Notes: generated from the sequence alone by a model not told the origin. Counted from the first letter of the stretch, positions 61,803-62,167 are shown. The stretch is DNA of 64,000 nucleotides from an uncultured Methanosarcinales archaeon (GCA_964556185.1 CAZKVI010000003.1:2089-66088); one strand, 5' to 3'. Numbers and translations: made by a program.

Positions 61803-61919
61803 AGTTACCATCAATTTACGAGGCTCTTTAAGTTTTATATGAACAAGCAGAGGGGGTTGCCCCATCCGGGGAGATGCTGCTCTTTGAATTAAGCATAGAA
61901 AGCTGAGTCGATGGTAACT
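61803..61919. ncRNA. 117-nt GC-enriched structured element, class and strand unresolved
   Basis: A 10-bp terminal helix AGTTACCATC/GATGGTAACT encloses a GC-rich three-way core 'GCAGAGGGGGTTGCCCCATCCGGGGAGATGCTGC'. The listed ORF 61770-61958 across it looks spurious. Confidence 0.3.
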
Positions 61920-61932
61920 CAATAGAATTATG

Positions 61933-62010
61933 AAAAAAGTCATGGCCCGTTTCAACAATTCTGTGGGGTGGGGGTTTAGAATTAAGATCAGTATCTACGG
62001 GCCTGACCTC
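61933..62010 (-). ncRNA. candidate ~78-nt small RNA with promoter and U6 terminator
   Basis: On the minus strand, BRE/TATA 'ACGTAACATTTATATA' lies 23 nt upstream. Stem GGUCAGGCCCG/CGGGCCAUGAC. Upper stem AAUUCU/AGAAUU with C-rich loop 'AAACCCCCACCCCAC'. It ends in UUUUUU. Confidence 0.35.
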
Positions 62011-62167
62011 TAATCTATATTATAGTTAAACTAGTATATAAATGTTACGTTTTTGTATACTGGTGTGGTTATTCTATATTTAAAGAGTATATCTTCACTA
62101 TAAAGTGATTAATATAACGAAAGGTTTATATACACCCTACAGATTACGTTTTCAAGGAGTTTAGAAA

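Follow-up and report, generated by a model that had tools for sequence, protein, structure and literature searches.

Two adjacent, GC-enriched elements in a 64,000-nt stretch of archaeal DNA (the window, by which we mean this whole stretch) probably have a two-part explanation: element A would be an independently transcribed small RNA (sRNA), element B a copy of a family of hairpin insertions, and the two would be neighbours by chance. The original prediction had placed two structured, GC-enriched RNAs at this site, and both are borne out as structured, GC-enriched elements, with folds of z = −3.3 (A) and z = −3.4 (B). Its reading of them as a pair of adjacent RNA genes holds for one member and not for the other: A is conserved and carries the marks of an expressed sRNA gene, but B is absent from the corresponding spacer of relatives and has an inserted paralogue, B2, 58 kb away. 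Because B is missing beside A in relatives and B2 is itself an insertion at a distant site, B would stand next to A by accident, and we regard the adjacency as apparently coincidental.

Setting and relatives

The GC content of the whole window is 31% and that across elements A and B is 0.42–0.47; the GC island at 61812–62006 is one of about a dozen in the window. As the host DNA is AT-rich, extragenic GC-rich islands are good RNA candidates. The window also holds intron-containing tRNA genes, and homologues of its proteins bear the names Woesearchaeota or Nanoarchaeota in their sources. Judged by its sequence, the host would have an AT-rich, Woesearchaeota-like genome within the DPANN lineage.

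The organism is rare in public data; samples that contain it are JGI 3300009374, 3300009332 and 3300009405 and ENA ERZ23499038, ERZ23499040 and ERZ23499057. The DUF371 protein that flanks the elements has only six relatives among 5.8 billion proteins and none among the species genomes, and the neighbouring PUA protein shows the same gap, with identities of 93, 88 and 78% followed by values of at most 59%. The contigs with DUF371 relatives belong to strains of the same species and to two more distant organisms, L013 and L014 (75% amino acid identity). We denote the contigs as window-type (L001, L002, L005, L046 and L047), other strains (L008–L011, L029, L049 and L050) and distant (L013 and L014).

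Searching 185,579 species genomes with the loop pattern of A gave four matches, all by chance and in bacteria; metagenomes gave one true match, in another strain (L029), and nine chance GC-rich ones. The patterns of A and B found viral contigs only through chance matches inside phage ORFs, and blastn of phages and plasmids returned no relative of the elements. An Rfam 15 scan of the window and of each element, covering families that include tRNA, 5S, RNase P, SRP, C/D, H/ACA, riboswitches and ribozymes, produced no match to A or B at the gathering score or at E ≤ 10, in keeping with the original prediction, which could assign neither to a known RNA family; for B2 it returned only noise far below threshold. 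Pair counts yielded one double compensatory pair in three sequences for A and ten compensatory pairs between B and B2.

Element A as a candidate small RNA gene

Element A and its surroundings comprise the following features, all on the minus strand.

61933–62011, minus: element A, predicted small RNA gene of about 79 nt (minus-strand fold, z = −3.3; promoter and T-run kept in relatives)
62034–62051, minus: BRE/TATA promoter of A, AACGTAACATTTATATAC (TATA at 62042–62035, about 24 nt before the RNA start)
61998–62010, minus: 5′ strand of P1, GAGGUCAGGCCCG (consensus fold of the manual alignment; pair table, 47/50 standard)
61991–61997, minus: 5′ side of the tandem G·A internal loop and P2, UA-GA-UAC (GA invariant in three variants: UAGA, AGUGA, UGUGA)
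61962–61981, minus: invariant 20-mer, UUCUAAACCCCCACCCCACA, C-rich, in the apical loop (20/20 identical in every relative)
61950–61956, minus: 3′ side, P2 plus GA plus 2 nt, GUU-GA-AA (GUUGA invariant in all variants)
61933–61949, minus: 3′ strand of P1, CGGGCCAUGAC, then the U6 terminator at 61938–61933 (sequence, consensus fold, pair table)
61770–61777, minus: TATA box of the leaderless DUF371 gene, GGAAAGTTTATAAC (invariant in relatives; ATG at 61746; B lies upstream)

The BRE/TATA, basal stem, C-rich loop (AAACCCCCACCCCAC) and U6 run on which the prediction of A was built are all in the sequence as described. With up to three mismatches, the promoter word recurs at five further sites in the window, two of them upstream of ORFs starting at 57659 and 62168; this recurrence, six matches in total against 0.1 expected by chance, makes the promoter call for A sound. 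We found A with both promoter and T-run in L008–L011, L029, L049, L013 and L014. The promoter is identical at 42–43 of 43 positions in the close strains, at 41/43 in L013 and at 34/43 in L014, and a T-run ends every variant (UUCUUUUU in L013 and AUUUUUUUU in L014). The minus strand folds at −22.8 kcal/mol, the z-score of −3.3 comparing with −1.3 for the plus strand.

Conservation was profiled on an alignment of the spacer, with counts per segment taken against the window sequence. The 20-mer is identical at 20 of 20 positions in both L013 and L014, while the adjacent 5′ arm retains only 16/36 (L013) and 13/36 (L014), an identity of merely 36–44% in these two distant relatives; the 3′ arm keeps 21/29 and 23/29, respectively, and the spacer beyond the T-run can be aligned in neither. 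The gene order A–DUF371–PUA and the common strand are conserved. Thus profiled, A appears to be a genuine, independently transcribed and conserved small RNA gene outside the described families, and would make a credible new small RNA family confined to a narrow clade.

Predicted fold of element A

The RNA is closed by a basal helix (GGUCA-GGCCCG/CGGGCC-A-UGAC) that pairs 62008–61998 with 61949–61939; across the three variants, P1 comprises 13–17 bp with one mismatch or bulge. The internal loop has an invariant GA on each strand, preceded by UA, AGU or UGU on the 5′ side and followed by AA, UC or AC on the 3′ side. P2 consists of 3–4 bp (UAC/GUU, AACC/GGUU or GACC/GGUU), and the apical loop spans 32–35 nt (about 33), its last 20 nt being the invariant 20-mer. 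A hand-made structural alignment of the three variants has a consensus energy of −20.3 kcal/mol; 47 of its 50 pair cells are standard, one pair is changed on both sides and three are changed on one side. These counts come from three distinct sequences and from the manual alignment (MAFFT shifts the 5′ arm by one column). With one double compensatory change in three sequences, the fold rests mainly on conservation and energy: a long terminal helix, an internal loop with tandem sheared-type G·A/A·G, P2 and a large loop that displays the block unpaired are shown, weakly by covariation. The upper stem AAUUCU/AGAAUU with a 15-nt loop, also predicted, can be formed by the window sequence, but it is restricted to the window-type and relatives do not keep it; the conserved unit is the 20-nt block within the ~33-nt loop together with the tandem G·A loop, which had escaped the earlier description.

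A canonical kink-turn (K-turn) consists of a stem, a 3-nt bulge, tandem sheared G·A and A·G pairs and an uninterrupted opposite strand. In A, the GA/GA tandem is invariant, the bulge has 2–3 nt and the opposite strand carries two extra nucleotides (AA, UC or AC); in the window copy, a U·U follows the two G·A pairs. Because these two nucleotides separate the 3′ GA from P1, the loop is non-canonical as a K-turn, and we suggest that it may serve as a K-turn-like protein site of the L7Ae type. In place of boxes C and D (RUGAUGA and CUGA), A has UAGAUAC, AGUGAAA or UGUGAGA in its 5′ strand and UUGA in its 3′ strand; of the boxes, the GA dinucleotides alone are kept. C′/D′ boxes and guides were not found either: the CUGA of the window (UACUGAUC) is CCAA in L013 and L014, and the stretch upstream of UUGA is variable. 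As for H/ACA, the U6 run directly follows the lower stem and the sole conserved ACA lies inside the apical loop. Given the absence of C, D, C′/D′ and ACA boxes, we do not file A under the C/D or H/ACA RNAs.

Possible action of element A

The exposed CCCCC-A-CCCC-ACA block suggests that A would act in trans, pairing with a G-rich RNA through a candidate stretch, CCCCCACCCCACA. The most economical mechanism that we infer would be a trans-acting RNA or RNP that offers a C-rich single strand to a G-rich partner. An RNAduplex search of the window for targets of the loop found no plausible or G-rich complementary site; the best site besides A's own antisense is the antisense of the tRNA-Leu 3′ end, because the loop resembles tRNA sequence. 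Pairing of the loop with the GGGGUU of the B core, considered as a cause of the adjacency, was rejected, as it spans 6–7 bp only and A is kept where B is absent. A telomerase-like template reading of (CCCCA)2 in A found no support.

Two other readings of A deserve weighing. It is quite unlikely that A, instead of acting in trans, serves the DUF371–PUA operon in cis as an attenuator or terminator hairpin. The conserved order and strand of the three genes agree with such a role, as does the succession of P1 and a U-run, which resembles an intrinsic terminator, but a conserved BRE/TATA of its own precedes the DUF371 ATG by 26 nt, so that the DUF371 mRNA is leaderless; moreover, unrelated insertions of 20–150 nt freely take the place of the sequence that separates A from that promoter, and termination needs no invariant 20-nt loop. 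The second reading starts from the resemblance of the loop to tRNA. CCCCCAC had been recognized in the original prediction as the acceptor 3′ strand of tRNA-Leu(UAA) (58774–58938, plus strand), a match that we can extend: the 20-mer is 16/20 identical to, and co-terminal with, 58919–58938, which covers the T-loop, the T-stem 3′ strand, the acceptor 3′ strand and the discriminator. The block might be a tRNA 3′ quarter (T-loop of 7 nt, T-stem of 5 nt, acceptor of 7 nt and discriminator). If true, A would be one part of a tRNA that is split in the T-loop, the first of its kind, or else a tRNA-derived mimic of a tRNA end that acts in trans and pairs with the 5′ parts of tRNA-Leu. Consistent with this, the block is exactly 20 nt long and in register with tRNA-Leu, tRNA genes of the lineage have strain-variable introns (including one in the T-loop in L013 and an extra one in the D arm here), and tRNA-Trp is often undetectable in complete Woesearchaeales genomes (bioRxiv 10.64898/2026.05.13.725050). 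We nevertheless hold the tRNA origin to be highly improbable, given that leader and trailer of A pair together and are not free for a partner, that A has no G-run to pair with the 20-mer, and that the window contains neither a GUGGGGU...GGGGG partner nor anything complementary to the 5′ arm of A. The T-loop-like sequence, UUCUAAA, has a U at position 57, which is normally a purine in tRNAs (canonical T-loop, UUCRANY), and about 0.1 such C-rich matches are expected in the window by chance. A trans-acting sRNA remains our preferred reading of A.

The tRNA-Leu(UAA) gene has peculiarities of its own. Both Rfam and ARAGORN missed it in the window; its orthologue in L029 scores 45.5 bits on the Rfam tRNA model. 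The D arm contains an extra insert of about 30 nt (~58785–58814) that is absent from L029 and L008, and L013 has a T-loop insert instead, differences from which we conclude that tRNA introns are gained and lost between strains. At 58928–59074 (plus strand), the 3′ end of the gene and downstream sequence occur twice, as 27-nt direct repeats with 89% identity at a spacing of 120. Between them lies a 120-nt insert, missing in L029, in which we find a palindrome (GTACTGC..GCAGTAC) and a mini-hairpin that resembles an acceptor, GUGGGG-AUCAUCCU-CCCCAC-A; the duplication looks like an att-type one.

Element B and its paralogue

The features of B and B2 are given without strand.

61803–61919: element B, 117-nt GC-rich four-helix hairpin, putative insertion (window-type contigs only)
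61803–61812/61910–61919: helix P1 of B (this and the next three from the structural alignment)
61822–61826/61905–61909: helix P1b
61827–61832/61882–61887: helix P2
61846–61850/61877–61881: helix P3
61853–61872: apical core of B, GGGGTTGCCCCATCCGGGGA (with up to three mismatches, B2 is the sole match in the window; 0 matches in 100 shuffles)
3431–3550: B2, 120-nt paralogue of B, P1 ATGTAGCAGC/GCTGCTATAT (found by scanning the GC islands)
3486–3505: apical core of B2, GGGGTTGCTCCCTCCGGGAA (sequence match to the B core)

The 117-nt length and the perfect 10-bp closing helix (AGUUACCAUC/GAUGGUAACU) attributed to B are both confirmed. The folding energy of B is −39.8 kcal/mol for the plus strand (z = −3.4), against −29.3 kcal/mol for the minus strand. 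Comparison with B2 reveals a structure maintained through extensive sequence change: helices P1, P1b, P2 and P3 provide 26 aligned pairs, 10 of which are changed on both sides, and 54 of 55 cells are paired on the plus strand. The two copies have the apical core GGGGTTGCYCCMTCCGGGRA in common, which contains an additional covarying pair, C..G in B and U..A in B2. The termini are identical at only 6 of 10 positions, whereas the apex is conserved. That hairpin and apex are maintained in such old, diverged copies excludes the neutral decay of a dead repeat; the form of the hairpin under selection may be RNA, or else cruciform or single-stranded DNA.

The five window-type contigs carry identical copies of B. 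B2 is present in each of ten same-species contigs, and its three population SNPs (3457, 3465 and 3485) all fall at positions unpaired in the model. Another contig, L006, terminates within B, where it differs at 9 positions in 30 nt, against 1 in 800 outside; this divergence stems from an assembly artefact, or L006 represents a second allele or paralogue. DGR-type hypervariation of B was rejected because the L006 differences are not adenine-specific. When the other inserts and tRNA introns of the window were compared with B, only B and B2 proved to be related.

Element B as a putative insertion

B is missing from the spacer between A and DUF371 in L008–L011 (four independent contigs), L029, L049, L050, L013 and L014. 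From the T-run of A to the BRE/TATA of DUF371, this spacer measures about 20 nt in L008–L011 and about 15 nt in L013 and L014. The absence of B from the same spacer in relatives identifies it as an insertion. A different event is seen in L029 (9060–9135), L049 and L050, where some 70 nt of unrelated, AT-rich sequence with the hairpin AGAAGTTTTTACAAACTTCT have been inserted into the spacer after A; this insert has AAGTTTTTACRAAC in common with the window insert after tRNA-Leu.

B2 sits exactly between the conserved TATA (~3572–3581, minus strand) and the Shine–Dalgarno (SD) sequence and ATG (3412) of a winged-helix-like gene, where its minus strand fills the whole 5′ UTR from transcription start site (TSS) to SD. 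The orthologous sites are empty, with an uninterrupted 5′ UTR, in L031 (85% amino acid identity) and L034 (68%); there are two copies in 64 kb and empty sites in relatives for both. In an 80%-identity relative (L032, 470–530, and L033), a different 46-nt GC hairpin (GCCGGGAAATCAGAGATTTCCGGC...) lies at the B2 site, apparently a hot spot for insertions, and splits the SD region. The gene itself has 2969 homologues at E ≤ 1e-5. It encodes a 153-aa protein (2951–3412, minus strand) with homologues across Woesearchaeota and Nanoarchaeota, which some sources call an ArsR-type regulator; no Pfam domain is listed for its 120 best homologues.

The terminal inverted repeats comprise 10/10 bp in B and 10 bp with one G·T in B2. 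B2 is flanked by TTAT on both sides (3427–3430 and 3551–3554), and B by TTTT and CAAT, with no target-site duplication at B. We saw no transposase or other mobilizing gene linked to B within the window, and the family as defined here consists of two full copies. The ends were also compared with other insertion types. P1 is an uninterrupted 10-bp helix and the next loops are 9 × 0 and 8 × 2 nt, not the two 3-nt bulges with a 4-bp helix of a BHB intron; the ends of B (AGTTACC/GGTAACT) and of B2 (ATGTAGC/GCTATAT) do not fit the RYYYAAC/GTTRRRY of an integron attC site. By eye, neither B nor A contains a hammerhead or other ribozyme core motif, an ORB or origin-element reading of either was rejected, and the arm lengths do not fit 5S rRNA.

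We infer that B is a member of a structure-constrained, MITE/ERIC-like family of mobile, GC-rich hairpins of about 120 nt. The hairpin and apical core would be what the mobilizing or maintaining machinery needs, and the copies would ride passively in host transcripts, like bacterial elements of the ERIC/MITE type. That these elements amount to a mobile element of a new class, with RNA structure as the object of selection, is a tentative notion, to which we give a minor chance.

The compensatory changes could also be read as those of an RNA gene: B and B2 would then be genes for a functional structured RNA on the plus strand, forming a small multi-copy family whose patchiness is gene gain. We think this unlikely, although the ten compensatory pairs and the invariant apical 20-mer with its internal covarying pair speak for it, as do the consensus energy (−25.7 on the plus strand, −13.7 on the minus), the more stable plus-strand fold of B and the start of B 25 nt from a palindromic TATA box. 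All four G·U pairs likewise fall on the plus strand, but such a one-sided count has p ~0.06–0.12. The element is absent from close relatives, there is no T-run terminator on either strand, and the only correctly spaced promoter is on the minus strand at B2, with a plus-oriented TATA at B only and no BRE there; the plus strand of B2 has no TATA at the right distance, and its minus strand is necessarily transcribed as a 5′ UTR. This last position raises a further alternative, that the B-type elements are cis-regulatory leaders, similar to riboswitches or thermometers, of the downstream minus-strand genes DUF371 and winged-helix. B and B2 each precede a minus-strand gene, with the same orientation towards it in both cases, and the minus strand of B2 occupies the entire leader of its gene. 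The two downstream genes are unrelated, however; B lies upstream of the DUF371 TATA, outside the leaderless transcript; B2 leaves the SD of the winged-helix gene unpaired; and orthologous UTRs do without the element despite the high conservation of the gene (2969 homologues), all of which makes a leader very improbable. The hairpin insertion family therefore remains our preferred account of B.

Other GC-rich islands and significance

Several other islands of the window merit description. At 28197–28332 (plus strand), a GC-rich segment with the small hairpins GAGGCCGAAAGGCTC and GAAGTCGAAGACTTC is bounded by two direct repeats of 35 nt (91% identity at a spacing of 101); it would be a further insertion, about 100 nt long and accompanied by a long duplication. 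Between a TATA and the tRNA at 29356–29237 lies a GC-rich, structured leader of about 85 nt (29357–29444, minus strand); it starts with GGGCUCA, the same 7 nt as the tRNA 5′ end, ends with AAGCCC, and could be an insertion at the tRNA 5′ end or an unusual leader. The island at 44940–45100 (minus strand) reads as a class II-type tRNA (GCCAGGGUGGUCGAGUCUGGC...) with long inserts and was detected by no tool. A GC-rich hairpin after the Lon-like gene (57420–57470, plus strand; CCCCGCAAACACUCCCGAAGGAAUGUUUGCGCGGG) is kept in L029 with one loop change and may be terminator-like or an RNA element.

To our knowledge, almost no non-coding RNAs of DPANN archaea have been described experimentally. Element A is a cleanly delimited candidate, with a promoter, a terminator, a G·A loop that resembles a protein site and a perfectly conserved 20-nt loop. 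The B family suggests that reduced, AT-rich genomes are colonized by small GC-rich hairpin insertions at promoters and 5′ UTRs. Together with the strain-specific tRNA introns and the other inserts of 100–120 nt, it would point to genome dynamics at a level that annotation pipelines overlook, and the same insertions hide tRNA genes from standard tools. None of these findings alone is a new principle.

Comparison with known systems

Among bacterial regulators, A recalls sRNAs with C-rich loops of the RsaE/RoxS type, in which an unpaired C-rich loop motif is kept far better than the stems and is expected to pair with G-rich sites. These sRNAs are Hfq-independent and target Shine–Dalgarno sequences through UCCC motifs; unlike them, A has no such target in the window, where the SD is GGUGAU. 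The split tRNA genes of Nanoarchaeum equitans share with A a DPANN host and a separately promoted small transcript bearing a sequence like a tRNA 3′ end. Those genes, however, are split at 37/38 or 29/30, and their halves pair with each other through GC-rich leaders or trailers that are free to do so, whereas A holds only a block resembling the T-loop to the discriminator, folds on itself and has no partner that we could find in the window.

The archaeal K-turn RNPs (box C/D sRNAs and other L7Ae-binding RNAs) resemble A in being small RNAs with their own promoter, in a terminal helix closed by tandem G·A/A·G followed by U·U or A–U, and in an exposed stretch that could pair with a target; the ..GA-UAC and GUU-GA.. 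of A resemble remnants of a C box and a D box (UAGAUAC and UUGA in the window). A differs from box C/D sRNAs in having no RUGAUGA/CUGA, no C′/D′ pair, no 10–12-nt guide abutting a D box and no match to a C/D family in Rfam. Its terminal helix comprises 13–17 bp rather than 0–5 bp, it carries two extra nucleotides on the non-bulged strand, and a loop of 33 nt holds its conserved block.

For B and B2, the closest parallels are bacterial palindromic repeats and MITEs (ERIC, Correia and REP/BIME) and the GC clusters of AT-rich yeast mitochondrial genomes (PMC4478555). Like these, B and B2 are GC islands of about 120 bp in AT-rich DNA, form imperfect long hairpins, occupy transcribed intergenic DNA by promoters, are present or absent between close strains and have no coding capacity; the possible 4-bp AT-rich duplication at B2 would add to the likeness. 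They differ in their archaeal host, in their strong divergence with compensatory stem changes, in numbering two copies and in having no known partner transposase. In a reversal of the classical MITE, it is the apical 20-mer of B and B2, rather than the termini, that is conserved.
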